Positions 2,201 to 53,943 of a DNA stretch of 64,000 bases are shown here, one piece after another. The stretch is from assembly GCA_964413645.1 (NCBI GenBank), contig CAYPSA010000001.1:72389-136388 (forward strand), read 5' to 3'. Both the position numbers and the translations under genes were made by a program. The notes beneath the pieces were generated by a model. The model was given only the letters and a program-made list of their open reading frames with translations. It made no database searches and had not been told where the DNA came from. The DNA is from an uncultured Gammaproteobacteria bacterium. Its GTDB lineage: Bacteria > Patescibacteriota > Microgenomatia > UBA1406 > HO2-37-13b. Each line of letters starts with the position of its first letter. The stretch's first letter is position 1.

Positions 2201-3131
2201 TTTTTTTGGCAAATTCTAAAAACGCTCCTTGTCCAGTTTGTACATTCTCTTCTTTTCCTCTCCATGCTGCAAGCATTGGTTCTTCAAATACCCTTTCGAA
2301 TGAAAAGGTAACGGGGAATTCCAAACGTCCTGCTAAAGAGTGAATCGCAGCCAAATTTTCATTTGCCTGCTGCCCACTTTGCCCTCCCGATAAAAATACC
2401 ACACCTCCGATTGTTTTTGGAACTATTTCTTGTAATAAATCTACGGTAGCTCTCCCTATCTCTTCAGGAGAGCTGGAAGTGTGACTCGAGCCGGGCATAA
2501 TCATATTCGTTTTCAAAATAATTTTCCCTACATCAATCCCCTGTTCTTCCAACTTTTCAAATAGGGAAGTGAACACTTTTTTTGTTGCCTGTGCACAATC
2601 CTCCATCGAATGACTTCCTTCCATTAACACTTCCGGTTCAACAATAGGCACAATATCGTGGCTAAGAGAGATTCGAGCGTATTCTACTAATAATCGCACG
2701 TTTTCATCAATCGCCTCATCACTCGGGGTGTCCGCAGAGATAGGAAACGCTGCTCGCCATTTTACAAAACTCGTCCCCATGCTCTTATGTGCAGCTAATC
2801 GGGAATCCAACGTATCAATTCCCTTTGTTGTAAACTCGCCATTAGTTTCAAAAGGCAATAAGCCTTCATCAACTTTCACACCAATTTCTATACCGGCTGT
2901 AGAGAGTAGAGAAGCCAATGCAATTCCTTCTTCATTTAGAATAACACCGCTAATATATTCACGAGCCCCCGGAGCGCTGTAAAATATTCTCCTAAACTCG
3001 TTTCTATTCTCTTCACTAGCCTCAATTCCATACTTCTCAAATCGCTTTGTTAACGTTGCCACACTTGCATCATTAGCAAAAATGCCTTTCTTATGAGTAA
3101 AAAGTTTACGTAGTGTTTCCTTGCAATCCAT
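2190..3131 (-). CDS. fba: Fructose-bisphosphate aldolase, class I (Schiff-base type)
   Basis: 313 aa; KGIFANDAS..TLTKRF, ILKTNMIMPG, VFLSGGQS motifs; last codons and stop lie in the twin-palindrome repeat. Confidence 0.85.
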   Translation of the reverse strand: MDCKETLRKLFTHKKGIFANDASVATLTKRFEKYGIEASEENRNEFRRIFYSAPGAREYISGVILNEEGIALASLLSTAGIEIGVKVDEGLLPFETNGEFTTKGIDTLDSRLAAHKSMGTSFVKWRAAFPISADTPSDEAIDENVRLLVEYARISLSHDIVPIVEPEVLMEGSHSMEDCAQATKKVFTSLFEKLEEQGIDVGKIILKTNMIMPGSSHTSSSPEEIGRATVDLLQEIVPKTIGGVVFLSGGQSGQQANENLAAIHSLAGRLEFPVTFSFERVFEEPMLAAWRGKEENVQTGQGAFLEFAKKMST

Positions 3132-3137
3132 GGGCTC

Positions 3138-3166
3138 ATTATATAGATTCGAAAGAGATTTCTCAA
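3138..3166 (-). promoter_or_regulatory. fba promoter, leaderless geometry
   Basis: Minus strand TTGAGA-17 nt-TATAAT-6 nt-ATG(3131). Confidence 0.65.
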
Positions 3167-3208
3167 ATGCATGAAATAGTCACTTGGCTATCTATTATAG
3201 GCTACATA

Positions 3209-3217
3209 TGATATAAT
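3209..3217 (+). promoter_or_regulatory. Extended -10 box for the 635-aa orphan
   Basis: TGaTATAAT, 10 nt before ATG 3228. Confidence 0.6.
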
Positions 3218-3227
3218 TTAAACCCAT

Positions 3228-5135
3228 ATGCATGAAAATATGGGCTCTGTTTATGCTATTCCAACAGGTAAATCAGACCAAAATCCTACAATACGTGGTG
3301 ATTATGATGGCGCCTTAGTAATGACTACAGGTAGTTATATTGATGGTAGTGTGCATAGGTGTCATGATCCCCTCGACATCGCCTTAACAACTGCATTTAC
3401 TTCTTTGAGAGACTATCTCAATTTTCCAGTTCAACCAACCAAAGAGATTGCTGTGTTCGGAAAAGAAGTTAGAAATCGTCCAAGAAAACCAATAGCCATA
3501 CTTCGATCTTCGGGTGAAGCTACATTAAATTCTCGCAGCTTTTATAGAAATGCCGATCCAATTTCCTTCGCGCCAGAAAGTCCTATAAAATTTGGAAGTG
3601 GCATACGACTTGAAGCTATCGTTGATTCGTTGGCTCCACAAGTTGCGGCACTAGAAATGACAGATATGCAGCGAGAACTTCTTCCAGGACACGCAATTAT
3701 TTTTGCTGAACAGACTCGTTTAAGTCCAAGTTCTCATCAGATTAAACAAGTCCGTCGTGTAAGTGCTGATGGATTATCTGTTCGAACACAAAAATATATA
3801 GCAGAGCACGAAATAAGCGATGATGAACTTAACGGACTTGCAGCTAGCCTGCTTCATGACGGCGCGATTTCATTAATCATTAATGGATCAAGTCAAAGAT
3901 ATAATCTTGACAATGTGTATTCGCTCATTAAAGGAAGTTCGAAAAAGAAGCGAGACTCGTTCCCGCAGCTTCATTTCTTTCATGCTCTTTACACCAAGTT
4001 TCTTGATATTGTCGCGGCACGTGTTACGCAGGAACCCACATCAGCGCAAGACATTATTCTTCGTTTGCATGAACAACCTGAACTTGGAATAGAAATTCCG
4101 CGCGAACCATATGATGCGCTTGCTCAAGAAACGTTGGTGGATCATCTCGGGACAACCTTACCTATCGAGGTAATGGCTCGTAAGTTAAAGAATGTTCCGC
4201 CTGCTATTATCGCAATGTCACCCACACTTCAATTATATGAAGTCCTTGTTGCTTCAGCCGGATACACACTTTTTTCACATGAAGAATCTCCCATAGCTGT
4301 TCAGGGTCATGAAGGTGAATTGGCAGGGGATTATATCGCAACAGCTTCAGCTTGGCCTGATTTAGTTGTAGGAGCAGTTAATAAAAGTAGCGAAACGTGG
4401 AGCACGATGATGACATTGGAGCGCGAGTTTTTATTACGAAGAAATCCGCATGTTCAAGACTCACAGGTTGCCGATCATTTAGAGAAAAGGCTAAAAAAAC
4501 TTTTTAGTGGTCATTTGTTAAATTTCCGAGCGATGAAGAATATTGACGCGCACGTATTGCATGCGTTTTTGTCGGGCCTTGCTACTGAAACGCCTGAATC
4601 ACAATTAATTTTATATGAGCGAAAAGCAAAATTGATGGTCGATGAGCAGAATAGTGCTCTTGCTCCTTTTGAGCTTTTTGATGAAAAAACGTCTGGAATA
4701 ATTCCATCAGTAGAGAGAAAATTTAAAGATGGCGCTTCAATTGATATAAAAAATAATGTTCAGCCAGGTATCCGAGACAGTGTTTTTGCAGTAACTCAAA
4801 TTATTCAGCTTTATCATAATTTACGCCAACTTTCATCGTTGAGTACTCAACCGCATCCACGACTTAACTGGAGAAAAGCAATAGCATTGCGTGGTTCAAT
4901 TATTCATATTCCTCTTTTTGAGCAGGCGTCAAAAAATGCTTTTAGGTATGTCCCAGGGAATAAATACGGTATTGAAATGGTCGATTACGCTTCAGGTATT
5001 ACAGATCATGACTTAAGACATGTGAGAGCGCTAGTGGGACAGACAATTGCAGAAAGAACTCAAACACAAGTAAAAGCAATAAGAAAATCTGCTCGTGTGC
5101 GAAGAAATGCGACACCATTGCGAAAAGTAGCATAA
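3228..5135 (+). CDS. Hypothetical protein, 635 aa, no motif recognised, basic C-terminal tail
   Basis: Long uninterrupted ORF with its own extended -10 box (3209-3217); no TM or signal peptide, no P-loop or metal motifs seen. Confidence 0.6.
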   Translation: MHENMGSVYAIPTGKSDQNPTIRGDYDGALVMTTGSYIDGSVHRCHDPLDIALTTAFTSLRDYLNFPVQPTKEIAVFGKEVRNRPRKPIAILRSSGEATLNSRSFYRNADPISFAPESPIKFGSGIRLEAIVDSLAPQVAALEMTDMQRELLPGHAIIFAEQTRLSPSSHQIKQVRRVSADGLSVRTQKYIAEHEISDDELNGLAASLLHDGAISLIINGSSQRYNLDNVYSLIKGSSKKKRDSFPQLHFFHALYTKFLDIVAARVTQEPTSAQDIILRLHEQPELGIEIPREPYDALAQETLVDHLGTTLPIEVMARKLKNVPPAIIAMSPTLQLYEVLVASAGYTLFSHEESPIAVQGHEGELAGDYIATASAWPDLVVGAVNKSSETWSTMMTLEREFLLRRNPHVQDSQVADHLEKRLKKLFSGHLLNFRAMKNIDAHVLHAFLSGLATETPESQLILYERKAKLMVDEQNSALAPFELFDEKTSGIIPSVERKFKDGASIDIKNNVQPGIRDSVFAVTQIIQLYHNLRQLSSLSTQPHPRLNWRKAIALRGSIIHIPLFEQASKNAFRYVPGNKYGIEMVDYASGITDHDLRHVRALVGQTIAERTQTQVKAIRKSARVRRNATPLRKVA

Positions 5136-5152
5136 GGATCTTCGTGAGCTGG

Positions 5153-5158
5153 TATAAT
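5153..5158 (+). promoter_or_regulatory. -10 box for sufC
   Basis: TATAAT 9 nt before ATG 5168; lies in the 15-mer GGTATAATACTCCTA shared with the lysK promoter. Confidence 0.6.
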
Positions 5159-5167
5159 ACTCCTACC

Positions 5168-5881
5168 ATGCTCACACTCAAAAACCTGTCTGTTTCCATT
5201 GAATCAAAAAAGATTCTCAAAAACATAAACTACACGTTTGAACCGGGGAAAGTGTATGCAATTATGGGTCCTAATGGATCGGGGAAATCTACATTGGCTT
5301 CTTCGGTTATGGGGCATCCTATTTATTCTGTTGGCAAGAGCTCGAAAATAGTTTTTGAAGGAGAAAATATTACTGAAATGGAGCCGAATGATCGTTCAAA
5401 TAAGGGAATATTTCTCTCATTTCAAACGCCTATGGCTCTTACCGGGGTGACTATCTATCAATTTATGCGCTATGCGCTAACGGGTAAAATGGATGCGCTA
5501 AAAATTCGACAGGGTGTGCAAAAGTTTGCAAAAAAATTACATATTTCAGAAGACCTCTTATCGCGTTCCTTAAACGATGGCTTTTCAGGAGGAGAAAAGA
5601 AAAAAATGGAAGTTTTGCAAGCCGCTCTTTTGGATCCTAAATTAGCATTTTTTGATGAAATTGATACAGGAGTAGACGTAGACGCGTTGCGATCGATTGC
5701 GAAATTTATTCAAGCTATGCGCACCCCTCAAAAAACTTTTGTAATAATTACTCACTACAATAGAATTCTCAAATATTTAAAACCCGATAAAATTATTGTT
5801 CTCAAAAACGGACAAATTGTAAAAGAAGGCACGGCAAAACTTGCTCAAGAGATTGAAAAAAAAGGCTACGATGCTTTTTAA
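5168..5881 (+). CDS. sufC: Fe-S cluster assembly ATPase SufC
   Basis: GPNGSGKST Walker A, FSGGEKKK signature, FFDEIDTG Walker B; start moved from ORF-track 5144 to ATG 5168 because 5153-5158 is a TATAAT box. Confidence 0.95.
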   Translation: MLTLKNLSVSIESKKILKNINYTFEPGKVYAIMGPNGSGKSTLASSVMGHPIYSVGKSSKIVFEGENITEMEPNDRSNKGIFLSFQTPMALTGVTIYQFMRYALTGKMDALKIRQGVQKFAKKLHISEDLLSRSLNDGFSGGEKKKMEVLQAALLDPKLAFFDEIDTGVDVDALRSIAKFIQAMRTPQKTFVIITHYNRILKYLKPDKIIVLKNGQIVKEGTAKLAQEIEKKGYDAF

Positions 5882-11570: not shown

Positions 11571-12430
11571 AAACCATTCCATCAAAATACGAACAATTCA
11601 CGGGGTATTCACCCACCTGGTGCCCGGGGTGTGGAAACTGGGCCATTGGCGCCGTCATAAAGAGAGCATTGACTGATATTGGACTAAATCCTTCCAGTAT
11701 TTTCGTTTCATTCGGAATCGGTTGTTCAGGAAATATGAATGATTTTTTGAATGCCTATGCAATCCACGGACTTCATGGTCGCGCAATTCCTACGGCGATT
11801 GGTTTTAAACTTGCCAATCACAAAATGCCCGTTTTGGTAATTGCTGGGGACGGCGACTGTTTTGGTGAAGGAGGCAATCATTTTCTGCATGCAGCTCGGG
11901 GAAATCATGATATCACTATCATTACGCACGATAATAGTGTGTATGGGCTCACTACGGGCCAAGCTGCTCCAACTGCTAATAAAGGGTATGTTTCCAAGTC
12001 GACACCTTTTGGGCTTATTGAAACACCCTTAAATCCGCTTGCACTGGCAATTAGTCAGGGAGCTACATTTGCAGCACAGGGATACGCGTCAAAAGTTTCC
12101 GAGCTCCGGGGGCTCGTAAAGAAAGCCATGCAGCACAAAGGTTTTTCCATCGTCAATATTCTGCAACCGTGCGTTACTTTTAATCATTACAACACCTATG
12201 ATTATTACGATTCTAAAACGTACCTTTTAAGCAAAAAACACGATCCAAAAAACCAAACTTTGGCTCTCAAACGAGCAATGGAAGCCACTATGATTGAACG
12301 TTTTCCGTTGGGAATTTTGTACAACGTAAAACGCCCAGCATTTCATGAACAGCTTCCACAATTGGCTCAAGAAACGCTGTTGAAAAGGGAGAGATTTACT
12401 GGAATCGACGAAATACTCTTTTCCTCTTGA
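11567..12430 (+). CDS. 2-oxoacid:ferredoxin oxidoreductase, beta (TPP-binding) subunit
   Basis: TWCPGCGNW and GDGDCFGEGGNHF TPP/Fe-S motifs. Confidence 0.85.
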   Translation: MKTIPSKYEQFTGYSPTWCPGCGNWAIGAVIKRALTDIGLNPSSIFVSFGIGCSGNMNDFLNAYAIHGLHGRAIPTAIGFKLANHKMPVLVIAGDGDCFGEGGNHFLHAARGNHDITIITHDNSVYGLTTGQAAPTANKGYVSKSTPFGLIETPLNPLALAISQGATFAAQGYASKVSELRGLVKKAMQHKGFSIVNILQPCVTFNHYNTYDYYDSKTYLLSKKHDPKNQTLALKRAMEATMIERFPLGILYNVKRPAFHEQLPQLAQETLLKRERFTGIDEILFSS

Positions 12431-12455
12431 CTTTTAGCAAACCCATTGCTATACT
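12427..12455 (+). promoter_or_regulatory. lon promoter
   Basis: TTGACT-17 nt-TATACT, 11 nt before ATG 12467. Confidence 0.7.
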
Positions 12456-12466
12456 GCTAACTACCT

Positions 12467-14896
12467 ATGAAAATTCCTGGTATTTCTGGCGAAAAAATGT
12501 ACCCCATTGTGCCTGTTCGTGATGGAATTGTGTTTCCGGGTGCCGAACAAGTTCTCCTGTTTGGACGATCAAAAAGTATCCTTGCAATCGATGAAGCGTT
12601 AAAGCGTGATAAGAAAATTATCTTGTTAATGCAAAAGAACCCCGATGTTAACGATCCGAAACCAGAAGATCTGCATCAAATCGGTGTTTTGGCTACTATT
12701 GAAAAAATGCTCAAAGGCGAACGTGGTGAAGTCAGTGCATTGGTTCGTGGAGAAACGCGAATTAAAGTTGAAACGTTTCATGTACACGGCGACTTGTTCG
12801 AGGCTGAGCTCAAATACTTACCTGAAGCAATTCTTGAACCCGCAACGACCAGTCAAGTTGAGGCACTCGTTAAACACATTACCAGTGAACTTAAAAAAGC
12901 TGTTAATTTAGGAAAAGGTATTGAGTTCGTCTTCTTAATGAACATCATGAGTGGCGTATCGCCGCAAGAATTTTCAAATCATGTAGCGATGATTTTAGAT
13001 ATCAAGACTCCGGCTCGACAAAGACTCCTTGAAGAAGAAGACTTGTTAGTAAGACTTCAAAAAGAAGCAGAACTTATTACGAATGAAGTTAAAGTATTAG
13101 AAATTGAACATAGTATTTCCGTAAAAACCCAAAAGAAATTTGAAAAGGGAATGAAGGATGCAGTGCTTCGCGAGAAACTCAAGACAATCGAACAAGAACT
13201 TGGTGATGAAACTCCAGAAAACCGCGATATAAATGAGCTTCGAGCGAAACTCAAAAAAGCAAAAATGAACAAAGATGCCGAAGAAAAGGCATTCAAAGAG
13301 CTTGAACGACTTGCGCAAATGTCCCCATTTAACCCAGAGGCTTCATATATCCGTACCTATCTAGAGGTTATTGCCGATCTTCCATGGAGCGAAGCATCAA
13401 AAGGTGACGTTGATATTAAGAAAGCTGAAAAAGTACTTAATGCCGATCACTATGGTTTGAAAAAAGTAAAAGAACGTATCTTGGAATATCTCGCGGTCAT
13501 GAAGTTGAAAGAAATGTCTGAAAAATCCAAAGATTCAGCTGCAAAACAGCCTACGATTTTATGTTTTGTTGGACCTCCCGGCGTAGGTAAAACCTCTCTT
13601 GGACGTTCAATTGCCAAAGCGTTAGGTCGCAAATTTGTAAAAATGTCACTTGGAGGAATTCGTGATGAAGCAGAAATTCGTGGTCATCGCCGAACATATG
13701 TTGGTGCCATGCCCGGACGCATGATTCAGGGAATTCGACAAGCAAAAGTAAATAATCCAGTATTCATGCTCGATGAAATCGACAAAATCGGTGGTGATTA
13801 TCGTGGCGATCCATCTGCCGCTCTTTTAGAAGCACTTGATCCTGAACAAAATTTTGCATTTTCCGATCATTACCTAGAAGTTCCATTCGACCTTTCCGAT
13901 GTAATGTTTATTACTACTGCAAATATGCTTGATACCATTCCAGGACCGCTTCGCGATCGATTGGAAATCATTAATTTCTCAGGATATACTGCTGATGAAA
14001 AGTTCCATATTGCAAAAAATTACTTAACTAAAAAACAAACAGAAGCTCATGGACTTATCGATCATAAAGTTTCCATTGTTGATACCGCGCTTAAATCTAT
14101 TGCAAACGACTATACCCGCGAAGCCGGGGTTCGTGAACTTGAACGTCAAATTGCTACTATTATGCGAAAAGTAGCTCGCGACGTTCTTGAAAAAGGCAAA
14201 AAAACATATTCAATTAAACCCGCAGATCTTCATGGTTATTTGGGTCCTAAAAAATATTCTTCACAAGTTATTGAAGAAAAGGATGCGATTGGAATTGTTA
14301 ATGGTCTTGCGTGGACTCCCGTTGGGGGAGAGATCTTATTGATTGAAATCGCAATCATGCCAGGCAAAGGAAACTTGATTCTTACCGGTCACTTAGGTGA
14401 TGTTATGAAAGAATCTGCCCAAGCCGCATTAAGTTATATTCGTTCACGATTTGAAGTATTTGGTCTAAATGGTGATTTTTATAATTCTATCGATATTCAT
14501 ATTCACGTTCCCGAAGGAGCTGTTCCAAAAGATGGACCTTCGGCTGGTGTTGCAATTACAACCGCTATGATTTCAGCGCTTACAAAACTTCCGGTAAATC
14601 GTCAGGTTGCTATGACGGGCGAAATTACACTACGTGGACGAGTTCTGGAAATTGGAGGAGTAAAAGAGAAGGTTATTGCAGCTCATCGAGCGGGAATTAA
14701 AACGGTCTTGCTTCCTGCTGATAATAAAAAGGATCTTGAAGATTTACCAACGTTCGTAAAAGATGATGTAGCGTTTATATTTGTTTCTCATCTTGATGAT
14801 GCGCTTAAAAAAGCCCTCATTTTCCCCGGTGGTAAATTTAATTTTAGAAAACTTGAAAAAGTAGCAGTTTCAGCAGAAACTCCCGTTCTTAATTAA
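12467..14896 (+). CDS. lon: ATP-dependent Lon protease
   Basis: 809 aa; GPPGVGKTSLGRSIA Walker A, KDGPSAGVAITTAM catalytic Ser. Confidence 0.95.
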   Translation: MKIPGISGEKMYPIVPVRDGIVFPGAEQVLLFGRSKSILAIDEALKRDKKIILLMQKNPDVNDPKPEDLHQIGVLATIEKMLKGERGEVSALVRGETRIKVETFHVHGDLFEAELKYLPEAILEPATTSQVEALVKHITSELKKAVNLGKGIEFVFLMNIMSGVSPQEFSNHVAMILDIKTPARQRLLEEEDLLVRLQKEAELITNEVKVLEIEHSISVKTQKKFEKGMKDAVLREKLKTIEQELGDETPENRDINELRAKLKKAKMNKDAEEKAFKELERLAQMSPFNPEASYIRTYLEVIADLPWSEASKGDVDIKKAEKVLNADHYGLKKVKERILEYLAVMKLKEMSEKSKDSAAKQPTILCFVGPPGVGKTSLGRSIAKALGRKFVKMSLGGIRDEAEIRGHRRTYVGAMPGRMIQGIRQAKVNNPVFMLDEIDKIGGDYRGDPSAALLEALDPEQNFAFSDHYLEVPFDLSDVMFITTANMLDTIPGPLRDRLEIINFSGYTADEKFHIAKNYLTKKQTEAHGLIDHKVSIVDTALKSIANDYTREAGVRELERQIATIMRKVARDVLEKGKKTYSIKPADLHGYLGPKKYSSQVIEEKDAIGIVNGLAWTPVGGEILLIEIAIMPGKGNLILTGHLGDVMKESAQAALSYIRSRFEVFGLNGDFYNSIDIHIHVPEGAVPKDGPSAGVAITTAMISALTKLPVNRQVAMTGEITLRGRVLEIGGVKEKVIAAHRAGIKTVLLPADNKKDLEDLPTFVKDDVAFIFVSHLDDALKKALIFPGGKFNFRKLEKVAVSAETPVLN

Positions 14897-14972: not shown

Positions 14973-15001
14973 TTGACTTCTTTATGCCTATTGTCTAAAA
15001 T
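14973..15001 (+). promoter_or_regulatory. Promoter of the DsbA-like gene
   Basis: TTGACT-17 nt-TAAAAT, 9 nt before ATG 15011. Confidence 0.7.
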
Positions 15002-15010
15002 GAACGTATT

Positions 15011-15805
15011 ATGGCACAAAAAAATGTAACGATTCCGCTTAACCAGAACACTATTCTCGTCGTCGCGTTAATCATTATGGCTTTCTTCGCAGGATACCTA
15101 TTCAATAAGAATAAGGCATTAGAAGAGAAAGCAAAAGTAGCAGTTGCTCCTGAAGCTCAAGAACAAAAGGCCGCTCCAATTTCAGCAGAAAAAGTAAATA
15201 AACTATTTGAAAAGGGATTTATTACTTTAGGAGATAAGAATGCAAAGATAAAATTTGTAGAAGTTTCTGATCCAAGCTGTCCTTACTGCCACGTAGCAGC
15301 TGGAAAAAATCCAGAACTTGCAGGTTCGGTTGGGCCACAATTTAAGTATGAATCTGAAGGTGGCACATACGTTCCTCCAGTTACCGAAATGCGAAAACTT
15401 GTAGAAGAAGGTAAAGCAGCATTTACCACCATTTATGCAAATGGACATGGAGCGGGAGAATTAGCAATGCAGGCGCTATATTGTGCTCATGATGATGGAA
15501 ATTTTTGGGAAGCACATGACATGCTTATGACAAACGCTGGTTACGAACTTATCAACAATGTCGTCAAAAACGATGTTGCAAATACAGGTAAGTTAGTCGA
15601 ATTCCTCGGTAACAAAATTAATGCTGCAAATGTAACCAAGTGTTTAACCGATAAAAAATATGTAGCACGTCTTACAACAGAACAACAACTTGCCATGGAC
15701 TTGGGTTTCCAAGGAACCCCATATTTCATCGTAAACACAACACCATTTGCGGGTGCATATAGCTACACCGACATCAAACCTACGGTTGATGGATTGTTGA
15801 AGTGA
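15011..15805 (+). CDS. Membrane-anchored DsbA-like thiol:disulfide oxidoreductase
   Basis: N-terminal TM helix and thioredoxin-fold CPYC motif; stop codon overlaps first unit of the repeat hotspot. Confidence 0.75.
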   Translation: MAQKNVTIPLNQNTILVVALIIMAFFAGYLFNKNKALEEKAKVAVAPEAQEQKAAPISAEKVNKLFEKGFITLGDKNAKIKFVEVSDPSCPYCHVAAGKNPELAGSVGPQFKYESEGGTYVPPVTEMRKLVEEGKAAFTTIYANGHGAGELAMQALYCAHDDGNFWEAHDMLMTNAGYELINNVVKNDVANTGKLVEFLGNKINAANVTKCLTDKKYVARLTTEQQLAMDLGFQGTPYFIVNTTPFAGAYSYTDIKPTVDGLLK

Positions 15806-16076: not shown

Positions 16077-17057
16077 TTATAATGACACTTTCTCAACCTT
16101 CATATCTACCATCGTTCTCTTCAATACATTTCCTTTTATTAGTGCCCAGAACAACCATACGGTAAACACCGATTCAACGAATCCAAAGAGAATAAATACT
16201 GGTTGAATAAATAGTACAACTAGGAACGCAACTAACACCGGCACGATATAACTATATTGCTCAAGAAGTATTAATAGTTGCGTTTGAATCTGCGGATGCA
16301 TTGCAGCAATAATGGGTTCAATATCTACATCGCCATTATCGTACACATACACATTTTCATACGGAATTGTGTTTGGATCGATTCCATACAGCTTTCCCGT
16401 TTGCTGATTTACCATATTTTTTCCAACTTCGCGTAATATACCACCAGCGGCTTCTTTTTTTTGCTGATATCCGAGTCCATCATATTGTGGGCCTAATTTT
16501 CGAATAACTTGGGAATTAATTTGTTTATTAATTATTGGAAGTAACGGCTTGCTTGCAAACATAATAAGTGTATCGTTTACCAGAGTATTTGAGGCGATTC
16601 GATCACGCGTTTGCACAAAACTAATAAGCGAGAAAAAAATCATCAAATATACAAACGATGTTCGCAATGCCGGCATAAAAATTTCTGACGGAATAAATTT
16701 TACAAATAGCGCAGCTCGTGAAGTACTTGAAGTATACATATACTGCTGCATCCACCAGAAAACGAGGGAGCTTAGCACCGATCCAACAATCGAATGACTA
16801 ACTGCAAAGAAAGTAAATCCAAATGTAAGCGTCGATACAAAATACAACTTGCCCATTCTATTATCATGAGCTAATCCGAACAAAAATAGACATAGGGAAT
16901 CTAAATAAACAAGAAATATTGAAACGAAGAATAGAATAATATTCACCCGCACCGCCCCACTGATTAATGCATACAAATTAATGCCACCTAAGGTAAATCC
17001 AAGAGCGATAGAAAGTAGTACAAGAAACCCAGCAAGAATGTTTTTAGTTGAAGGCAT
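16077..17057 (-). CDS. Hypothetical polytopic membrane protein
   Basis: 326 aa; multiple hydrophobic segments flanking a ~110-aa hydrophilic loop; TGcTATAAA box 6 nt upstream of ATG; no motif recognised. Confidence 0.55.
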   Translation of the reverse strand: MPSTKNILAGFLVLLSIALGFTLGGINLYALISGAVRVNIILFFVSIFLVYLDSLCLFLFGLAHDNRMGKLYFVSTLTFGFTFFAVSHSIVGSVLSSLVFWWMQQYMYTSSTSRAALFVKFIPSEIFMPALRTSFVYLMIFFSLISFVQTRDRIASNTLVNDTLIMFASKPLLPIINKQINSQVIRKLGPQYDGLGYQQKKEAAGGILREVGKNMVNQQTGKLYGIDPNTIPYENVYVYDNGDVDIEPIIAAMHPQIQTQLLILLEQYSYIVPVLVAFLVVLFIQPVFILFGFVESVFTVWLFWALIKGNVLKRTMVDMKVEKVSL

Positions 17058-17063
17058 ATGCTA

Positions 17064-17072
17064 TTTATAGCA
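17064..17072 (-). promoter_or_regulatory. Extended -10 box for the membrane protein gene
   Basis: Minus strand TGcTATAAA, 6 nt before ATG 17057. Confidence 0.55.
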
Positions 17073-17736: not shown

Positions 17737-17774
17737 AGTGGTAATTCATGAGAAAAGCTTAGTATGGTTTGTAT

Positions 17775-17780
17775 TATACT
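17775..17780 (+). promoter_or_regulatory. -10 box for the histidine phosphatase gene
   Basis: TATACT 6 nt before ATG 17787. Confidence 0.5.
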
Positions 17781-17786
17781 ACATAT

Positions 17787-18395
17787 ATGAAAATCTACTT
17801 TGTTCGCCATGGGGAATCACAGCAAACCGATCGTGTTTTTCAGTTGCCCAGTACTCCGCTTAGTGATAAAGGAGTTTTGCATTCGCAGGCGGTAGTTAAA
17901 TCGCTTTCTGCTACTTCATTTGATTTACTTGTTTCAAGCCCCTACGAAAGAGCGCTGCAAACAGCTCAAATTATCGAGAAATCTATTCACATTCCTGTCA
18001 TACAAAATCCTCTATTTACTGAACGCAAAATGCCCACTTCTTTTGAGGGAAAGCCCGTGAATCAGGAAGCTATTTCACTAACCCATCAGCAAATACGACA
18101 GAATTTTTTTAATAAAGACTGGCATCATGAAGATGAGGAAAATTTCTTTGATTTACAAACGCGGGTTCGAGCCGCTCGTGATTGGCTAATTTCGCAAAAT
18201 AAGCAAACTGTGCTAGTTACGACTCACGGATATTTTTTAACCATCATGGTCTTTGACATACTTTTTGGAAATACCGATAGTCACCATCTATTCAAATCAT
18301 TCAAAACGCATACAGAATTTTCAAATGGGGGAATAACTGCCATAGAGTTTCAAAGTGGTATGTGGAGAATAATCTCAATGAATATGATCCCGTAA
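17787..18395 (+). CDS. Histidine phosphatase family protein (PGAM-like)
   Basis: YFVRHGESQQ and VLVTTHGYFL; start moved from 17769 to ATG 17787 (TATACT box at 17775-17780). Confidence 0.8.
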   Translation: MKIYFVRHGESQQTDRVFQLPSTPLSDKGVLHSQAVVKSLSATSFDLLVSSPYERALQTAQIIEKSIHIPVIQNPLFTERKMPTSFEGKPVNQEAISLTHQQIRQNFFNKDWHHEDEENFFDLQTRVRAARDWLISQNKQTVLVTTHGYFLTIMVFDILFGNTDSHHLFKSFKTHTEFSNGGITAIEFQSGMWRIISMNMIP

Positions 18396-18483: not shown

Positions 18484-18512
18484 TTGACTTTTTACTTTTT
18501 GTGTAGTATATT
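18484..18512 (+). promoter_or_regulatory. greA promoter (leadered; the exception)
   Basis: TTGACT-17 nt-TATATT; about 47-nt leader with GGAGG at 18551-18555. Confidence 0.7.
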
Positions 18513-18565
18513 CTATCAAACCTGACCTCAAAATATATTAGAACTTGACGGGAGGGTGTTTTTTT

Positions 18566-36054: not shown

Positions 36055-37919
36055 TTTTACGTAAAAAGAAATTTCATCATTCCGGAAAAAAACGCACACG
36101 TGCACGAATTTTTTGGTCATTGGTTCTTTTGGCTATCTTCCTAACGTTCTTTGCAGTACTACCACTAAAAAATATTAACACTAAAGGTCGAGCAGTTGTG
36201 GCAAGTGCTCGTGTTATGAAAGATTCACTAAAAGGCGATGACATGGCTAAAGTTCAGGCAGATATGAAAGATGTGCAAACAAAATTCGAATCATTCCAAA
36301 AAGACGCCCGAAAAATATATTGGATGCGATATATTCCCGTTGCCGGATGGTACGTTTCCGACTTTAAGCATGGCGTAGAAGCAGGCGAGAGTCTTATTAA
36401 CGCTGGTCAAAAGGGTATTACTGCCATAGCGCCGTATGCCGATTTAATTGGATTTAAAAAAGGAGGAGCAGGTTTTGCCGATCGATCAGCCGATGATCGT
36501 ATTCAAACAGCGGTATTGACACTCGATAAAATTGTTCCACAAGTCGATGCCATTGCGGTCGATATTGATGCTGCCCAAAAAGAAATAGATAAAATTGATC
36601 CTAGTAAATACCCTGGAAAATACTCAGGTAAAATAGCCAGCTATCAAGAACAATTTGATAGCGTCGCTTCTTTATTTGTTGATGCTAAGCCATTCATAAA
36701 GAAAGTTCCCAATCTTCTAGGTGCTCACGGCGAACGAACATATATTGTCGTTTTCCAAAATGATAAAGAGCTTCGACCAACCGGAGGATTTTTAACTGCA
36801 TATGCTATTTTCAAAATGAAGAATGGAAAAATGTCTGCACAACGTTCGGAAGACATTTATAATCTCGATGCTTCTATTTCAAGCCATCCAAAAGCACCCG
36901 CACCAATCTTGGCCTATCATAAAGGCGTGTTTCAATTAAACATTCGAGACAGTAATTTGAGTCCAGATTATTATGTATCTATGCAGGAATTTGAAAAACT
37001 GTACGCAAAGAGTAGTCAGAAAGTCGCATACGATGGAATCATTGCAGTCGACACAAAGGTGTTGGTCGACATGTTGCGGGTTTTGGGCGATACAGAAGCC
37101 GGGGGTCACACGTTCTCAGCTAAACAAGATGATCGATGTGATTGCCCACAAGTAATTTACGAATTATTGAATGACATTGATCGTCCGGTGAATTACATTA
37201 AAAACGATCGAAAAGGAATTCTTGGGCAACTACTCTATGCAATCATGCAAAAAGCACTCGGGTCATCGCCTTCACAGTACTGGGGTCAGCTTACTCAAGA
37301 TGGAATTGCGAATCTTGAAGAAAAACATATTCTTATGTATCTTAAAGATGAAGAAGAGCAAAAAGCCGTTGAAGCAATTAATTTTGCCGGTCGCATGCAA
37401 CAGGCAAAAGGAGACTTTTTACACATAAATGACACCAACTTTGCTGGTGCAAAATCTAATTTATTCGTAAAGCACAACGTTACCTCCGACACTACTATCG
37501 ATTCCAATGGAACCGTTACTCGAAAGCTTACAATACGTTATAAAAACCCACATCGTGCATCAGATTGTAATCTGGAACGTGGTGGACTCTGCTTGAACGC
37601 GCCGCTACGAAATTGGCTTCGTATTTACGTTCCACAGGGGAGTAAGTTGGTTAACTTTAAAGGATCTCAGACAAAAACACAGACATATGATGAGCTTGGA
37701 AAAACTGTTTTTGAAGGCTTTATGACAGTTAATCCAATGGGATCCGCTCTTGTAACACTTGAGTATGAGCTTCCCAATAAAGTGAAAAATCAAAAAGAAT
37801 ACACGCTATATATTCAAAAACAGCCCGGTACCGTTGGGCATGAATACACCGTTAATGTAAACAATAAACTGCGTTCTAACACTCCTCTTGTCAAAGACTT
37901 CGAACTTACGTTACAATAA
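36051..37919 (+). CDS. DUF4012-like membrane-anchored extracytoplasmic protein
   Basis: N-terminal TM helix; FQNDKELRPTGGFLTAYAIFKMKNGKM resembles the DUF4012 core as I recall it; 4-nt overlap with the sugar transferase gene. Confidence 0.7.
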   Translation: MILRKKKFHHSGKKRTRARIFWSLVLLAIFLTFFAVLPLKNINTKGRAVVASARVMKDSLKGDDMAKVQADMKDVQTKFESFQKDARKIYWMRYIPVAGWYVSDFKHGVEAGESLINAGQKGITAIAPYADLIGFKKGGAGFADRSADDRIQTAVLTLDKIVPQVDAIAVDIDAAQKEIDKIDPSKYPGKYSGKIASYQEQFDSVASLFVDAKPFIKKVPNLLGAHGERTYIVVFQNDKELRPTGGFLTAYAIFKMKNGKMSAQRSEDIYNLDASISSHPKAPAPILAYHKGVFQLNIRDSNLSPDYYVSMQEFEKLYAKSSQKVAYDGIIAVDTKVLVDMLRVLGDTEAGGHTFSAKQDDRCDCPQVIYELLNDIDRPVNYIKNDRKGILGQLLYAIMQKALGSSPSQYWGQLTQDGIANLEEKHILMYLKDEEEQKAVEAINFAGRMQQAKGDFLHINDTNFAGAKSNLFVKHNVTSDTTIDSNGTVTRKLTIRYKNPHRASDCNLERGGLCLNAPLRNWLRIYVPQGSKLVNFKGSQTKTQTYDELGKTVFEGFMTVNPMGSALVTLEYELPNKVKNQKEYTLYIQKQPGTVGHEYTVNVNNKLRSNTPLVKDFELTLQ

Positions 37920-37923
37920 TTGC

Positions 37924-38454
37924 ATGCGATATAGTAGTGACTTTGGAATTATTCTAAAAAAGAACCAATTGTTAGGTGACAATATCCTTGTTACTCTTTT
38001 TTCGTTAAGTAAGGGCAAAATTGTCCTAAAGGCTTACGGAGTCAAAAAGCTTAATAGTAAGCGTATGGCACATTTGGAAACAGGGAACTACATTTCGTTT
38101 TTAAGCTATCAAAAAGGAACTCATACGACTCTTACTGAAACGGAGCTGGTATATGGCTATTCTAAGATACGTAAATCCAGCGACAAGCTGGCGTATCTTT
38201 TTACCTACCTATTTGTGCTTAATAGAGTGTTGCCTGAAGAACAGCCCGATACAATATTATTTCAAAATGTAAAGAATTTCTTGAAGGAACTTAATAATAG
38301 CCCAGAATTTACCACCAAAGATCTTGCACGTCACTTTGATCAGCTTTTGCTTACTGCTGGATTTTTGTCGCCCGAAAAACAATCATCGCAAGGCTACGAT
38401 ACCATGCTTTTTATCGAAGAAGTAATCGGAAGAAAAGTGAACGTGATGTTTTAA
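37924..38454 (+). CDS. recO: RecO-like DNA repair protein (short)
   Basis: 176 aa; N-terminal OB-fold-like pattern GIILKKNQLLGDNILVTLFSLSKGKIVLKAYGVKK; weak, motif-level only. Confidence 0.6.
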   Translation: MRYSSDFGIILKKNQLLGDNILVTLFSLSKGKIVLKAYGVKKLNSKRMAHLETGNYISFLSYQKGTHTTLTETELVYGYSKIRKSSDKLAYLFTYLFVLNRVLPEEQPDTILFQNVKNFLKELNNSPEFTTKDLARHFDQLLLTAGFLSPEKQSSQGYDTMLFIEEVIGRKVNVMF

Positions 38455-49747: not shown

Positions 49748-50684
49748 AGGTTTTTGATAGATAGCTACTATTAATTATCTTTCCAATTGTAATACTAACA
49801 AGTGCCTTAAATTGTAGCATAATCCGTAACACATGTAATTGCAAGCGGCTATTATGTTTTTTGTAAAAATATAAAAAGCCTTTAAATACCTGAATTATCG
49901 GTTCACTGCGCCCATTGCTTGAAGCACTTCCCAAGTGAATTATACGTGAATTTGGATAAAATCCTGTCAGAAGATTATGTTTTTTTGCTCTGTATAGCAA
50001 GTCAATTTCTTCCATATACATAAATATGGCCTCATCAAATCCACCCAACATTTCAAAATCACTTTTTGCACACATAAAACAAGCTCCCGAAACCCAATCT
50101 ACTTGTTTGGTAAACCGTGGTGAAAAGCGGGTAAGACCATAATAATCACCTCGTAAAAATAGGGCAGCAAACACTACGGGTAGTGTATAAAAGTGTCCGG
50201 CCGAAGCTTGTGGCGTTTTCCCGTCTTTTTCTAAAAGCTTAGGACCGACGAAAGAGTATATATTTAAGTCGCTGGTAAAAAAGGAATACAAGGAGCTTAT
50301 ACTGTCAACCCCGTCAGTCTCAGCGATACCTTTGTCATTCCGATCCGCCATCTGGCGGAGAGGAATCTCAGCTCTGGCACCCAGGATCTCCGTATCCGAA
50401 TTCAAAAATAACAAATGTTTCCCCATTGCCTGTTTCACCGCCGCATTATTTCCCTTCCCAAATCCCAAGTTTTCTTTACTTTCTACTATCTTAATTGAGA
50501 GTGAAGAGTGCTGTTTTTTAAACTCGTGCAGCATAGCAATCGAATTATCAGTGGAGTCATTATCTAAGACAACAATTTCATATTTAAATGAAGCTTCCTC
50601 TAAGCCTAAAACAATCGTTTGCAGGCACTTTTTGGTGATTTGAGCAGTATTGTATGAAACTATGATGATCGATAGATCTACCAT
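49713..50684 (-). CDS. Glycosyltransferase family 2 (carries a 69-72 nt in-frame repeat insertion)
   Basis: MVDLSIIIVSYNT, VLDNDSTDNS, LFLNSD; ATG 50684 used (TGgTATACT box 6 nt upstream) instead of ORF-track 50885. Confidence 0.8.
   Translation of the reverse strand: MVDLSIIIVSYNTAQITKKCLQTIVLGLEEASFKYEIVVLDNDSTDNSIAMLHEFKKQHSSLSIKIVESKENLGFGKGNNAAVKQAMGKHLLFLNSDTEILGARAEIPLRQMADRNDKGIAETDGVDSISSLYSFFTSDLNIYSFVGPKLLEKDGKTPQASAGHFYTLPVVFAALFLRGDYYGLTRFSPRFTKQVDWVSGACFMCAKSDFEMLGGFDEAIFMYMEEIDLLYRAKKHNLLTGFYPNSRIIHLGSASSNGRSEPIIQVFKGFLYFYKKHNSRLQLHVLRIMLQFKALVSITIGKIINSSYLSKTYAQAYGITKNN
50326..50394 (+). repeat. Family A unit (antisense to the gene) inserted in frame in the GT2 gene
   Basis: acctttgtcATTCCGAtccgccatctggcggaGAGGAATctc...atctccgtat; same left and right ends as the intergenic copy at 9293-9330. 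Confidence 0.85.
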
Positions 50685-50690
50685 TACATT

Positions 50691-50699
50691 AGTATACCA
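50691..50699 (-). promoter_or_regulatory. Extended -10 box heading the 12-gene glycan operon
   Basis: Minus strand TGgTATACT, 6 nt before ATG 50684. Confidence 0.6.
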
Positions 50700-50715
50700 G
50701 GTGAAACATGCCAGT

Positions 50716-50745
50716 GTCATCTCGAGCGTGACGAAAGATCTCAGC
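50716..50745 (+). repeat. Degenerate family A unit
   Basis: gtcatctcgagcgtgacgaaagatctc. Confidence 0.6.
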
Positions 50746-51232: not shown

Positions 51233-51238
51233 TTTTCT

Positions 51239-51247
51239 GCTATAATT
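51239..51247 (+). promoter_or_regulatory. Extended -10 box for glyQS
   Basis: TGcTATAAT, 6 nt before ATG 51254. Confidence 0.65.
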
Positions 51248-51253
51248 TCCTCA

Positions 51254-52630
51254 ATGAACACGCAAGCTTCTTTGGACAAAGTTACTTCGCTCGCCAAGCG
51301 CCGGGGGTTTATTTATCCGTCTTCCGATATTTATGGTGGCATGGCCAATAGCTGGGATTTTGGCCACTACGGCACACTTCTAAAAAACAACATACGCGAC
51401 GCATGGTGGAAACACTACGTACTCGACAGATCTGATGTAAAAGGAATTGAAGCAAGTATTTTCTTGAATCCTGCAGTATGGCAAGCTTCCGGACATGTTT
51501 CAAACTTTACTGATGCCATGATAGATTGCAAAAATTGCAACAATCGAACTCGCGCAGATCACCTCATTGAAGGAGCACTCAAAGATACTAAGGTCGAAGG
51601 ACTTCCGGTACAAGAACTTACAGATCTTGTTAGGAAAAATGCTATAAAGTGTCCAAAGTGCGGTCTTTCTGATTGGACCGATGTTCGTCAGTTTAATTTG
51701 CTATTTGAAACAAAATTAGGCATTGTAGAAGATGCAAAGTCTCAAGTTTACCTGCGTGGTGAGCTTGCTCAGGGAATTTTTATTAACTTCAAAAACGTGC
51801 TCAATTCTATGCGGGTAAAACTTCCTTTTGGTATTGCGCAAGTTGGAAAAGCATTCCGTAATGAAATAACCATGGGTCAGTCAGTTCACCGAACTTTAGA
51901 GTTTGATTTAATGGAGTTTGAATATTTTGTAGATCCGAAAAATTGGGAAGACATATATAATATGTGGCACGATGATATGTGGCAGTTTGCACTCTCCTTG
52001 GGTTTAAAAGAGGAAAACCTGCGTTGGCGTGAACATGAAGAATTTGAGCGAGCGCATTATTCTAAAAAAACCGCTGATATTGAATACGAATATCCATTTG
52101 GATTCAAAGAAATGTTTGGCATTGCGTATCGCACCGATTTTGACTTAAAAAATCACATGGAGAAGTCGGGGGTAGATATGAATTACACCGATAAAGATGG
52201 AAATAAATTCGTTCCACATGTGGTTGAGCCTACATTCGGACTCTCTCGATTAGTGGGTATCGTATTAACCGATGCGTATTGTGAAGAAAGCGTGGGCGAG
52301 AATACTCGTACCGTACTCAAATTACATCCAACACTCGCTCCAATTAAAGCGGCAATATTTCCTCTTCAAAAAGATGAGAAATTGCAAACTCAAGCAAAGG
52401 AGATTTATGAAAAACTTAGTAAACAATTTGTGTGCGAATTTGACGATGCCGGAAATATTGGGAAAATGTACCGTCGTCAAGATGAAATCGGAACACCGCT
52501 CTGTATAACTATTGATTATGAAACTGAAGCTGATGGAAAAGTCACCGTGCGCGATCGTGACAGTATGCAGCAAGAAAGAGTTGAAATCGCAAATCTTTCT
52601 CAGTATATTGAAAAAAAGTTAACAAATTAA
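51254..52630 (+). CDS. glyQS: Glycyl-tRNA synthetase (alpha2 dimer type)
   Basis: RRGFIYPSSDIYGG N-terminus, GKAFRNE class II motif, C-terminal anticodon-binding domain. Confidence 0.93.
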   Translation: MNTQASLDKVTSLAKRRGFIYPSSDIYGGMANSWDFGHYGTLLKNNIRDAWWKHYVLDRSDVKGIEASIFLNPAVWQASGHVSNFTDAMIDCKNCNNRTRADHLIEGALKDTKVEGLPVQELTDLVRKNAIKCPKCGLSDWTDVRQFNLLFETKLGIVEDAKSQVYLRGELAQGIFINFKNVLNSMRVKLPFGIAQVGKAFRNEITMGQSVHRTLEFDLMEFEYFVDPKNWEDIYNMWHDDMWQFALSLGLKEENLRWREHEEFERAHYSKKTADIEYEYPFGFKEMFGIAYRTDFDLKNHMEKSGVDMNYTDKDGNKFVPHVVEPTFGLSRLVGIVLTDAYCEESVGENTRTVLKLHPTLAPIKAAIFPLQKDEKLQTQAKEIYEKLSKQFVCEFDDAGNIGKMYRRQDEIGTPLCITIDYETEADGKVTVRDRDSMQQERVEIANLSQYIEKKLTN

Positions 52631-53100: not shown

Positions 53101-53113
53101 GCGCTTTAGAATG

Positions 53114-53122
53114 TGCTATAAT
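53114..53122 (+). promoter_or_regulatory. Extended -10 box for the 93-aa ORF
   Basis: TGcTATAAT, 8 nt before ATG 53131. Confidence 0.55.
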
Positions 53123-53130
53123 GGCCGTCT

Positions 53131-53412
53131 ATGGCAGTTGAAATGAGCGTGTATAAAAAAGGGCGAATGCTTGGCTCGGCGGATATTGGGTCTACTGGCA
53201 GAGGGGAATTGTCACTCCCGAAAGGCGATATGACAGTTGGTGTACTGGTAACAAATGGAGATTCACAAGAAATATACGTTGGCTATTATGATCATAAACC
53301 TTTGGTGATGGAGCCCAAGGGAACTTATACGCACATTGCTATTCTAACCGGAACAGGTACGAACGTACTACCACTTCCAAAGAAACAATTCGTCGTTATT
53401 TCAAATTCATAA
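53131..53412 (+). CDS. Hypothetical small protein (93 aa)
   Basis: ORF with TGcTATAAT box 8 nt upstream; no motif recognised. Confidence 0.45.
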   Translation: MAVEMSVYKKGRMLGSADIGSTGRGELSLPKGDMTVGVLVTNGDSQEIYVGYYDHKPLVMEPKGTYTHIAILTGTGTNVLPLPKKQFVVISNS

Positions 53413-53507
53413 GATCAATCACTTCTCACTATCAATCCTTTAGTTTGAGTTATTTCAGAGTTTTTTTAGTTACTTCTTTTTAATTGTAAATTAGGGCTAT
53501 TTACCCC

Positions 53508-53536
53508 TTGACATCGCTCTAAATTGCGCCTAAAAT
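53508..53536 (+). promoter_or_regulatory. mraZ / dcw cluster promoter
   Basis: TTGACA-17 nt-TAAAAT, 8 nt before ATG 53545. Confidence 0.75.
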
Positions 53537-53544
53537 GGTTGTAA

Positions 53545-53943
53545 ATGGCATTTTTTGGTGAATATAAAGTATCAATTACGGCTGGGGGAAGAATAGTACT
53601 ACCGAAAAAGATACGAGAACAGGTAAAAGGAGAAGTTTTTATACTCACCAAGGGATTTGACGTTTGTTTAGGAGGCTACGATAAAGCCGATTGGGACAAG
53701 CGATCAGATGCACTTTTACAAGTCTCGCTACTTGACCGTGACGACATAGACCGTCGCCGATACATTTTTTCCGGTGCACAAGAAATTGGGCTTGATGAAC
53801 AAGGACGATTCGTAATTCCTAAAGCACTTGCCTCATTTGCAGGAGCGCAAGACGGAGAAGCAATTATTATTGGCGTTGGCGACCATTTTGAAATCTGGGA
53901 ACAAAAGCGATGGATTACTTATTCCAAAGCAACAAAACAATAA
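53545..53943 (+). CDS. mraZ: Transcriptional regulator MraZ
   Basis: Two SpoVT/AbrB-like halves (GRIVLPKKIRE, GRFVIPKALAS); first gene of the dcw cluster. Confidence 0.9.
   Translation: MAFFGEYKVSITAGGRIVLPKKIREQVKGEVFILTKGFDVCLGGYDKADWDKRSDALLQVSLLDRDDIDRRRYIFSGAQEIGLDEQGRFVIPKALASFAGAQDGEAIIIGVGDHFEIWEQKRWITYSKATKQ

Follow-up and report, generated by a model that had tools for sequence, protein, structure and literature searches.

Many genes in the DNA studied here, a stretch of 64,000 nucleotides (nt) from an uncultured bacterium (contig CAYPSA010000001.1, positions 72,389 to 136,388; hereafter the window), start only a few nucleotides behind a hexamer that resembles the -10 element of a bacterial promoter, which raises the questions of whether these hexamers are promoters and how the resulting mRNAs would be translated. 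A first-pass annotation of the window had listed 17 such starts as predominantly leaderless first cistrons. In our analysis the box-to-ATG geometry was confirmed as real and far above chance, and it is probable that boxes of the form (TGn)TAnnnT abut the ATG so closely that the mRNAs of about one third of the genes would be leaderless or nearly so.

Judging from its proteins, the source genome is a Microgenomates-type one from the CPR (candidate phyla radiation)/Patescibacteria. When we scanned for LysK with one genome per species, the close relatives were all CPR/Patescibacteria metagenome-assembled genomes (MAGs), with LysK identities of 84% to locus L013 (a MAG labelled Ca. Roizmanbacteria), 71% to L006 and 56-65% to Microgenomates and Dojkabacteria MAGs, and Lon was 93-94% identical to L006 and L013. 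A metagenome scan with GlyRS returned 9 loci, none with useful synteny. The window has a G+C content of about 40% and a high coding density, and carries housekeeping genes (fba, pgk, a suf cluster, lon, greA, class I lysS, serS, secA, eno, ftsH and glyS), an mraZ-dcw cluster, a large glycosyltransferase cluster and three tRNAs. An Rfam scan of the window found these three tRNAs only, and no known leader RNA matching the upstream regions.

The box-to-ATG geometry and its excess over chance

In order to score the boxes, the 60 nt upstream of all 17 listed starts were extracted, and a box was defined as TAnnnT with a match of at least 5/6 to TATAAT and its 3' end 6-11 nt before the ATG (the gap). 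For the statistics the first ATG of each open reading frame (ORF) was taken mechanically, because the circularity of picking starts to fit boxes had to be avoided. We pooled 369 genes from the CPR loci obtained with LysK, and used 96 genes from seven Clostridia loci (LysK identity 26-27%), which have a similar G+C content and went through the identical pipeline, as outgroup and control.

In the window, 17 of 56 genes carry a box at this gap, compared with 2.21±1.4 in dinucleotide shuffles, and none of 1000 shuffles reached 17; the neighbouring 6-nt offset bins hold 1-4 genes each. The extended form TGnTAnnnT was observed eight times, where 0.49 was expected. A test that uses no annotation gave the same picture: 10 of the 55 exact TATAAT hexamers in the window precede, at 6-11 nt, the ATG of an ORF of at least 80 codons, and other offset bins hold 1-3. 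Among 209 internal in-frame ATGs, 2.4% have a box. In the pooled CPR set the box is present at 111 of the 369 genes, with 42, 23, 16, 13, 8 and 13 genes at gaps of 6, 7, 8, 9, 10 and 11 nt, respectively, and about 3-4 per position elsewhere, while the 96 Clostridia genes show no gap peak. The gap histogram of the pooled CPR genes has a sharp mode at 6 nt. Calculated for each locus, the share of genes with a box is 20-53% in most CPR loci and 0-11% in the seven Clostridia loci, in which an SD-like (Shine-Dalgarno-like) tetramer is found at 27-89% of the genes. A generic two-hexamer promoter scan of the window was too permissive to show any excess (52 sites, compared with 48.6 in shuffles); its top matches include 3131, 12467, 15011 and greA.

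The boxes are accompanied by further promoter features. TGn precedes 37 of the 111 pooled sites (33%; about 6% was estimated from base composition), and when the sites are aligned on the hexamer, G stands out at -14 and T at -15. The hexamer consensus is T-A-t-A-A-T, in which A2 and T6 are near-invariant by construction and A4 and A5 are strong. A -35 element with at least 5/6 matches lies 16-18 nt away at 20 of the 111 sites, compared with 1-3 in shifted controls. The sites thus combine a -10 hexamer carrying A2 and T6 with TGn and/or a TTGACA-like element at 16-18 nt, as sigma-70 promoters do.

The frequency of the box also depends on gene context. In the pooled set it is 10% when the gene lies at most 5 nt behind its upstream neighbour, 67% and 58% in co-directional spacers of 6-14 nt and 15-40 nt, respectively, and 43% at divergent genes, and in the short-spacer subset TGn remains enriched and the mode remains at 6 nt. 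Moreover, TATAAT also stands before tRNA-Met and tRNA-Pro (promoters at 34595-34612 and 35335-35354, respectively, on the minus strand), where 9-12 nt separate its end from the mature 5' terminus; the precursors of these tRNAs would therefore carry short 5' leaders, a few nt in length. A survey of tRNA promoters, suggestive only with n=15 tRNAs, found five or six with a -10 box 9-13 nt upstream. Because TGn and -35 elements are co-enriched, the box is rare at coupled genes and it also precedes tRNAs, the boxes look like sigma-70-type promoter elements and not ribosome-binding sites (RBSs).

The geometry is kept across CPR lineages at the orthologues of lysK, serS, lon, 15011, 17057 and 27342, while spacers and flanks diverge. 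The N-terminus of LysK (MFWAD or MYWAD) is conserved out to Clostridia. At least eight lysK orthologues (L005, L006, L009, L011, L013, L015, L016 and L021) have TATAAT, TAAAAT or TATACT at a gap of 6-8 nt, and the Clostridia orthologues have AGGAG-type SD motifs instead; at the CPR locus L010, TACAAT precedes a leader of 17 nt that contains AAGGAG. Likewise, nine CPR orthologues of serS have TATAAT or TACAAT at a gap of 6-9 nt, and the Clostridia orthologues have AGGA-type SD motifs.

Individual sites and their start codons

When we examined the 17 listed sites one by one, 15 proved to have TAnnnT with at least 5/6 matches at a gap of 6-11 nt; at the other two the box described earlier falls short, since 17057 lacks the final T and 35223 matches at only 4/6. 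TGn is present at 10 of the 17, and a -35 element with at least 5/6 matches to TTGACA stands at 17-18 nt at 12467, 15011, 53545, 3131 and 50684.

On the plus strand, the site at 3228 (3209..3230) has TGaTATAAT (-10 at 3212-3217) at a gap of 10 nt before a 635-amino-acid (aa) hypothetical protein divergent from fba; the ORF offers no start before this ATG, and the public gene call likewise has 635 aa. The sufC site at 5168 (5150..5170) has TGgTATAAT (-10 at 5153-5158) at a gap of 9 nt, with the upstream stop codon 32 nt away, and the lysK site at 19054 (19042..19056; class I lysyl-tRNA synthetase, with the greA stop codon 26 nt before) has TATAAT at a gap of 6 nt. An identical 15-mer, GGTATAATACTCCTA, had been reported at these two sites and is found at 5151-5165 and 19040-19054. 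We rejected it as a meaningful element, and it carries little weight since, by our own arithmetic, 128 kb of two-strand sequence should hold a few such pairs of identical 15-mers by chance and its register to the ATG differs (gap 9 compared with 6), so that the two sites are simply two good promoters. The serS site at 20662 (20650..20664) also has TATAAT at a gap of 6 nt, 21 nt past the lysK stop codon.

The lon site at 12467 (12427..12469, plus strand) consists of TTGACT-17-TGcTATACT at a gap of 11 nt, and the entire promoter is kept in L005, L006 and L013. The promoter contains an inverted repeat of 27 nt, TTAGCA-N15-TGCTAA (12434-12460), which overlaps the -10 element and the predicted start site; it is kept in the same three loci, and L009 has CTAGCACTC...TGCTAG. 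The consensus of the CIRCE/HrcA operator is TTAGCACTC-N9-GAGTGCTAA, and we take the lon repeat to be CIRCE-like in its outer arms and total length. Such a repeat may be the reason for the gap of lon being the longest.

The remaining plus-strand sites follow the same plan. At 15011 (14973..15013; thioredoxin/DsbA-like protein) TTGACT-17-TAAAAT stands at a gap of 9 nt, and in the L006 and L013 orthologues the -35 and -10 elements are kept and the spacer has diverged. At 17787 (17772..17789; histidine phosphatase, divergent from 17736) TATTAT and TATACT overlap and the gap is 9 or 6 nt, and at 35395 (35378..35397; sugar transferase) TGtTATACA and TACAAT (-10 at 35383-35388) give 6 or 8 nt; the first-pass annotation had indicated this double reading in part. 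The orthologues of 17787 have TGaTATACT or TATACT at a gap of 8 nt. The 50-nt divergent spacer at 17737-17786 separates two histidine-phosphatase paralogues and contains overlapping -10 boxes that face each other, TATTATACT on the plus strand being AGTATAATA on the minus strand; the plus-strand gene is of the leaderless type, and the minus-strand gene (17736) has a predicted leader of about 26 nt, while its L013 orthologue has TGaTATACT at a gap of 9 nt. The glycyl-tRNA synthetase site at 51254 (51238..51256) has TGcTATAAT (-10 at 51241-51246) at a measured gap of 7 nt and not 6 as claimed, 21 nt past the stop codon of the gene at 50816-51232. The site at 53131 (53114..53133; 93-aa hypothetical protein) has TGcTATAAT (-10 at 53117-53122) and the mraZ site at 53545 (53508..53547), at the head of the dcw cluster, has TTGACA-17-TAAAAT, both at a gap of 8 nt.

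On the minus strand, class I fructose-bisphosphate aldolase at 3131 (3129..3166) has TTGAGA-17-TATAAT (-10 at 3138-3143), a match of 11/12, at a gap of 6 nt. A 326-aa hypothetical protein at 17057 (17055..17072) has TGcTATAAA (5/6, with A for the final T) at a gap of 6 nt, and its orthologues have TGcTATAAA in L006 and L013 and TGcTACAAT in L005, all at a gap of 6 nt. TGcTAAAAT precedes ftsH at 31486 (31484..31504) at 9 nt, and TGaTATAAT precedes a DsbA-like protein at 34499 (34497..34516) at 8 nt; the latter promoter directly adjoins tRNA-Met at its encoded CCA end. At 35223 (35221..35240; membrane protein), the poorest site on the list, TGaTATAGA (4/6, no final T) at a gap of 8 nt falls below our scoring threshold. 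A GT2 glycosyltransferase at 50684 (50682..50720) has ATGACA-18-TGgTATACT at a gap of 6 nt.

We also found sites beyond those listed earlier. An ABC transporter ATPase at 27342 (27340..27357, minus strand) has TGaTACAAT at a gap of 6 nt, kept as TGaTAGAAT at 7 nt in L006 and as TGcTACAAT at 6 nt in L013. The recO gene at 37924 (37888..37926, plus strand) has TTGTCA-18-TACAAT at a gap of 6 nt; this promoter sits within the 3' end of the preceding gene (stop at 37919), and the RecO_N domain begins at residue 1 of the ORF. A possible further site is TATCAT at a gap of 7 nt before an FtsI-type penicillin-binding protein at 55015 (55002..55017, plus strand). In about 10 kb on each side of the window, where starts were taken from public gene calls, TGgTATAAT-6-ATG occurs at an AlaRS-like gene, a sortase gene and a MurL-like gene both have TGTATAAT-6-ATG, and ftsZ has TGaTATACT-10-ATG.

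The greA gene (18484..18568, plus strand) had been presented as the contrast to these sites, and we could read every part of it: its promoter is TTGACT-17-TATATT, its leader measures about 47 nt, and GGAGG (18551-18555) stands 10 nt before ATG 18566.

The geometry depends on where the genes start. The first-pass annotation had argued that six starts of the ORF list (5144, 17769, 19036, 20644, 35122 and 50885) were over-extended, and the short forms (5168, 17787, 19054, 20662, 35395 and 50684, respectively) are all supported. First, Pfam domains begin at residues 1-5 of the short forms (residue 14 for Bac_transf in 35395), including residue 3 for 17787 and residue 5 for the GT2 domain of 50684. 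Second, the long ORF from 35122 would cross tRNA-Pro, and that from 50885 on the minus strand would overlap the plus-strand gene 50816-51232. Third, the public gene calls have GreA with 153 aa, LysK with 528 aa, SufC with 237 aa, FBA with 313 aa, and SerS from 20662; the protein sequences are also present in sequencing runs SRR8893623 and SRR8893624. The short SufC begins with MLTLKNLSVSI, which we take to resemble the N-terminus of E. coli SufC. Finally, all sites are ATG-initiated, and in 11 of the 17 no earlier start is available in the ORF. At the sites checked individually, conserved N-termini, Pfam and NCBIfam boundaries and public gene calls agree that the annotated ATG is the true start; for 35223 and 53131 the start follows from the ORF structure only, as it does for 3228 apart from the public call of 635 aa. 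Two further starts of the ORF list are also too long, since greA begins at ATG 18566 and not at TTG 18545, and secA begins at 21944 (MFNPFKSFFDF), 4 nt past the serS stop codon. Longest-ORF starts in CPR MAGs run through the genes' own promoters, in at least six cases in the window in addition to greA, secA and others, and correct N-termini in such MAGs need a gene-finding model that includes leaderless genes.

The gene at 50816-51232 (plus strand, 138 aa from ATG) had been left off the earlier list, and the public call has 148 aa with GTG 50786 as start. The gene is real: it matches no family, but a single homologue (40% identity, 99% coverage) has a strongly conserved C-terminus, LMEERILPYYYGILQPDSSFPD. 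Upstream of it, TGTATAAT at 50777-50784 implies a leader of about 25 nt without SD.

Leader length, translation mode and alternative explanations

Transcription typically starts 7 nt after the -10 element (PMC12641261), and the leaderless starts of M. tuberculosis have the Pribnow box 6-8 nt away according to GeneMarkS-2 (PMC6028130). With a mode of 6 nt, a start site 7 nt after the -10 element therefore falls on the A of the ATG. We propose that the boxes are -10 elements of the housekeeping sigma-70 type, often extended and with little or no -35 element. RNA polymerase would initiate at the A of the ATG when the gap is 6-8 nt and 1-5 nt upstream of it when the gap is 9-11 nt, so that the mRNAs would have no room for an SD sequence, and the ribosome with initiator tRNA would bind the 5'-terminal AUG directly, by analogy with other bacteria. 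Many genes lying 6-40 nt behind a co-directional neighbour would each carry their own promoter, and most of the other genes are translationally coupled or have A-rich, SD-poor upstream regions.

The SD analysis is consistent with this proposal. No SD stands between box and ATG in the leaderless class, since a gap of 6-11 nt leaves no room for one, and the mean anti-SD duplex energy of this class is -1.4 kcal/mol, compared with -6.95 kcal/mol for the Clostridia control genes. It had also been claimed that operon-internal genes show SD-like motifs, which found little or no support: the 37 non-leaderless genes of the window have a mean of -2.32 kcal/mol, and shuffles have -2.37 kcal/mol. When the window was pooled with L005, L006 and L013, a weak SD excess appeared (17% of genes at or below -6 kcal/mol, compared with 8%; z=-2.7). 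The method does pick up SD usage in the Clostridia controls (64% compared with 18% at or below -6 kcal/mol; z=-16). The only strong SD in the window is that of greA, at -10.8 kcal/mol. About half of the non-leaderless genes are coupled, through a 4-nt ATGA-type overlap or a gap of at most 5 nt, and from -2 to -8 their upstream sequence is rich in A and poor in G.

Several points weigh against leaderless expression as proposed here. First, we infer the positions of transcription starts and the mode of translation from the spacing between -10 elements and start sites and from the leaderless mRNAs of Actinobacteria and Deinococcus (PMC6028130). Second, the SD analysis uses the canonical anti-SD, which may not be that of the source organism; we looked for the 16S 3' tail in an extra 10 kb on each side of the window and found no rRNA there. 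Third, RNA structure over the first 40 nt is the same at leaderless-type and other genes (-2.9 and -3.1 kcal/mol, respectively; p=0.58). Fourth, 17736, 50816 and greA need their own promoter and yet have leaders of about 25-47 nt. Fifth, gaps of 9-11 nt at 6 of 20 sites would give leaders of 1-5 nt, so that these mRNAs would not be strictly leaderless. Finally, in co-directional spacers of 21-36 nt, which have no room for a terminator, leadered read-through transcripts probably coexist with the leaderless ones.

This last point bears on the description of the genes as first cistrons, which we regard as unproven for 5168, 12467, 17057, 19054, 20662 and 53131, all of which lie 21-36 nt behind a co-directional gene, in spacers where a generic terminator scan found no site. 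Their boxes are better described, on present evidence, as gene-by-gene internal promoters than as demonstrated operon heads. These six of the 17 sites also favor a different explanation, in which the boxes are secondary promoters, closely spaced genes are expressed mainly from polycistronic leadered mRNA, and the proximity of box and ATG is a by-product of genome compaction. We consider this account unlikely, although it is partly compatible with the explanation proposed above. Compaction alone fails to explain a sharp mode at 6 nt that is conserved across lineages with differing spacers, and divergent genes, which have no upstream operon, share the geometry (3131/3228, 31486, 35395 and 50684, and the 43% of pooled divergent genes).

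Alternatively, the hexamer might be a translation signal on leadered mRNAs, either a non-SD RBS or an unstructured 'enhancer' in the style of the Bacteroidetes 'group B', which would suit the scarcity of SD motifs and the A-rich upstream regions of the other genes. We judge this very improbable, because an RBS is expected at internal and coupled genes (PMC6028130), and the box is found at 10% of coupled genes and in 58-67% of spacers of 6-40 nt. In addition, the hexamer has the consensus T-A-t-A-A-T with strong A4 and A5, it is accompanied by the contacts of RNA polymerase (TGn at -15/-14 and TTGACA at 16-18 nt), and it also stands before two tRNA genes. The last possibility, that AT-rich intergenic DNA (about 40% G+C) and starts chosen to fit the boxes produced the pattern, draws on the loose promoter scan that only equaled shuffles and on the fact that 6 of the 17 starts had been chosen partly from boxes, and it is effectively refuted, since the excess survives the first-ATG rule against shuffles, neighbouring bins and internal ATGs, Clostridia loci of similar G+C show no peak, and the starts were independently confirmed.

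The proposed leaderless expression appears to vary among CPR lineages in our samples, which are small (7-21 genes per locus). Leaderless-type starts account for 32-53% of genes in loci labelled Microgenomates, WWE3 and Saccharibacteria, and the CPR3 (L007) and Paceibacterota (L008) loci are SD users. Three Dojkabacteria loci (L001, L002 and L020; 40 genes) show no -10 box at the ATG, and none of their non-leaderless genes is at or below -6 kcal/mol. Based on these observations, we tentatively raise the possibility, with somewhat more doubt than confidence, that in the Microgenomates-type lineage the promoter effectively replaces the RBS, with SD nearly abandoned and nearly every uncoupled gene carrying its own extended -10 promoter abutting the AUG, also in spacers of 6-40 nt or within the 3' end of the preceding gene, and that this trait switches among CPR lineages. 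Such switching might parallel the reductions of the ribosome that have been described for particular CPR lineages. Genetic work on Patescibacteria is just beginning to be feasible, and in expression constructs for this clade a TGnTATAAT box should probably be fused at 6-7 nt from the ATG in place of an SD. Actinobacteria, Deinococcus and Archaea make prominent use of leaderless initiation, and discussions often treat it as ancestral. If it is a major mode in part of CPR, whose ribosomes are reduced, a large lineage is added to that debate, and the apparent variation among CPR lineages offers a natural comparison.

Other elements of the window and comparison with known systems

A 23-nt hairpin-like repeat, CATTCTGAGCGGAGCGAAGAATC, has eight copies in the window with at most 3 mismatches, where none was expected; all are on the plus strand, at 5924-5946, 7994-8016, 8463-8485, 9301-9323, 11531-11553, 21910-21932, 31570-31592 and 32671-32693. 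Several of them coincide with the 3' end of a gene or come shortly before a start, and the copy at 21910 encodes the last serS codons. Fragments (cagaatgaca) that resemble the reverse complement of this repeat precede the starts at 6028, 28606 and 40654. Another element, of about 50 nt, contains two perfect hairpins CAACCT-AAG-AGGTTG 27 nt apart and has three copies on the minus strand (2156-2197, 9228-9269 and 43363-43404). Two of these copies are separated by 9-12 nt from a start codon that follows them (...AAGAGGTTGACAAA..ATG), in one case that of pgk (2144) and in the other that of a hexapeptide transferase (43354), and there are also degenerate copies, upstream of 48212 and downstream of lon. 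The element has no match in Rfam and could be an operator, an element resembling repetitive extragenic palindromes (REP-like) or an SD-masking structure.

Two genes are also worth describing. The ORF at 31603-32667 (plus strand) contains both a Sua5/YciO/YrdC (TsaC) domain and a TsaE domain, and is thus a TsaC-TsaE fusion adjoining tsaD (32737-33771); it starts at GTG 31555 or ATG 31603, and copies of the 23-nt repeat lie in its upstream region. The SufD-like ORF at 7437-8033 (plus strand) is short, with 198 aa, matches only the C-terminal SufBD core (profile positions 96-232), and has a copy of the same repeat at its 3' end.

We then compared the boxes with known systems. The extended -10 promoters of E. 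coli and Gram-positive bacteria need no -35 element. The boxes described here are like such sigma-70 promoters (TGnTATAAT) in having TG one base before a good -10 hexamer and an often poor -35 element, and differ from the studied ones in that the element is defined by sequence statistics alone.

Among archaea, the leaderless genes of group D resemble ours in that leaderless first genes occur and SD is little relied on, but the archaeal box lies about 26 nt before the start (PMC6028130) and the box here is a bacterial -10 element at 6-11 nt. The Bacteroidetes-type group B shares the low SD usage and the A-rich upstream regions of the non-leaderless genes. However, in group B every gene has the motif, internal genes too, and a promoter role is excluded (PMC6028130), whereas the box here avoids coupled genes, being found, as described above, several times more often in short spacers than at coupled genes, and is accompanied by promoter features.

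The closest likeness is to the leaderless-rich group C, to which GeneMarkS-2 assigned 1028 of the 4769 bacterial genomes, chiefly those of Actinobacteria and Deinococcus-Thermus (PMC6028130). In group C (Mycobacterium, Streptomyces, Corynebacterium; Deinococcus-Thermus) the Pribnow box lies about 6-8 nt before the start (PMC6028130), compared with 6-11 nt here, and a large share of genes has this arrangement, 25-50% in group C and about 30-37% here; the absence of SD and the ATG starts are also shared. The differences are first the lineage, which here is Microgenomates-like CPR/Patescibacteria with about 40% G+C. Second, the extended -10 TGn is frequent here (33-42%). Third, the remaining genes here have little SD, while group C is described with SD-type RBSs at leadered and internal genes. 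Finally, many of the predicted promoters here lie in co-directional spacers of 6-40 nt.

A search of full-text literature found nothing linking leaderless mRNAs with CPR/Patescibacteria beyond passing citations, the supplementary tables of GeneMarkS-2, which may list CPR as 'group C', lying outside this search. A study of CPR ribosomes reported loss of the anti-SD only in a subgroup of Parcubacteria and did not discuss leaderless genes (PMC9297842), and the transcription-start data of TM7x used in PMC12641261 were not analysed there for leader length. Based on these comparisons, we suggest that the window represents a new lineage for a known, 'group C'-like phenomenon, the mechanism itself being the one already described.

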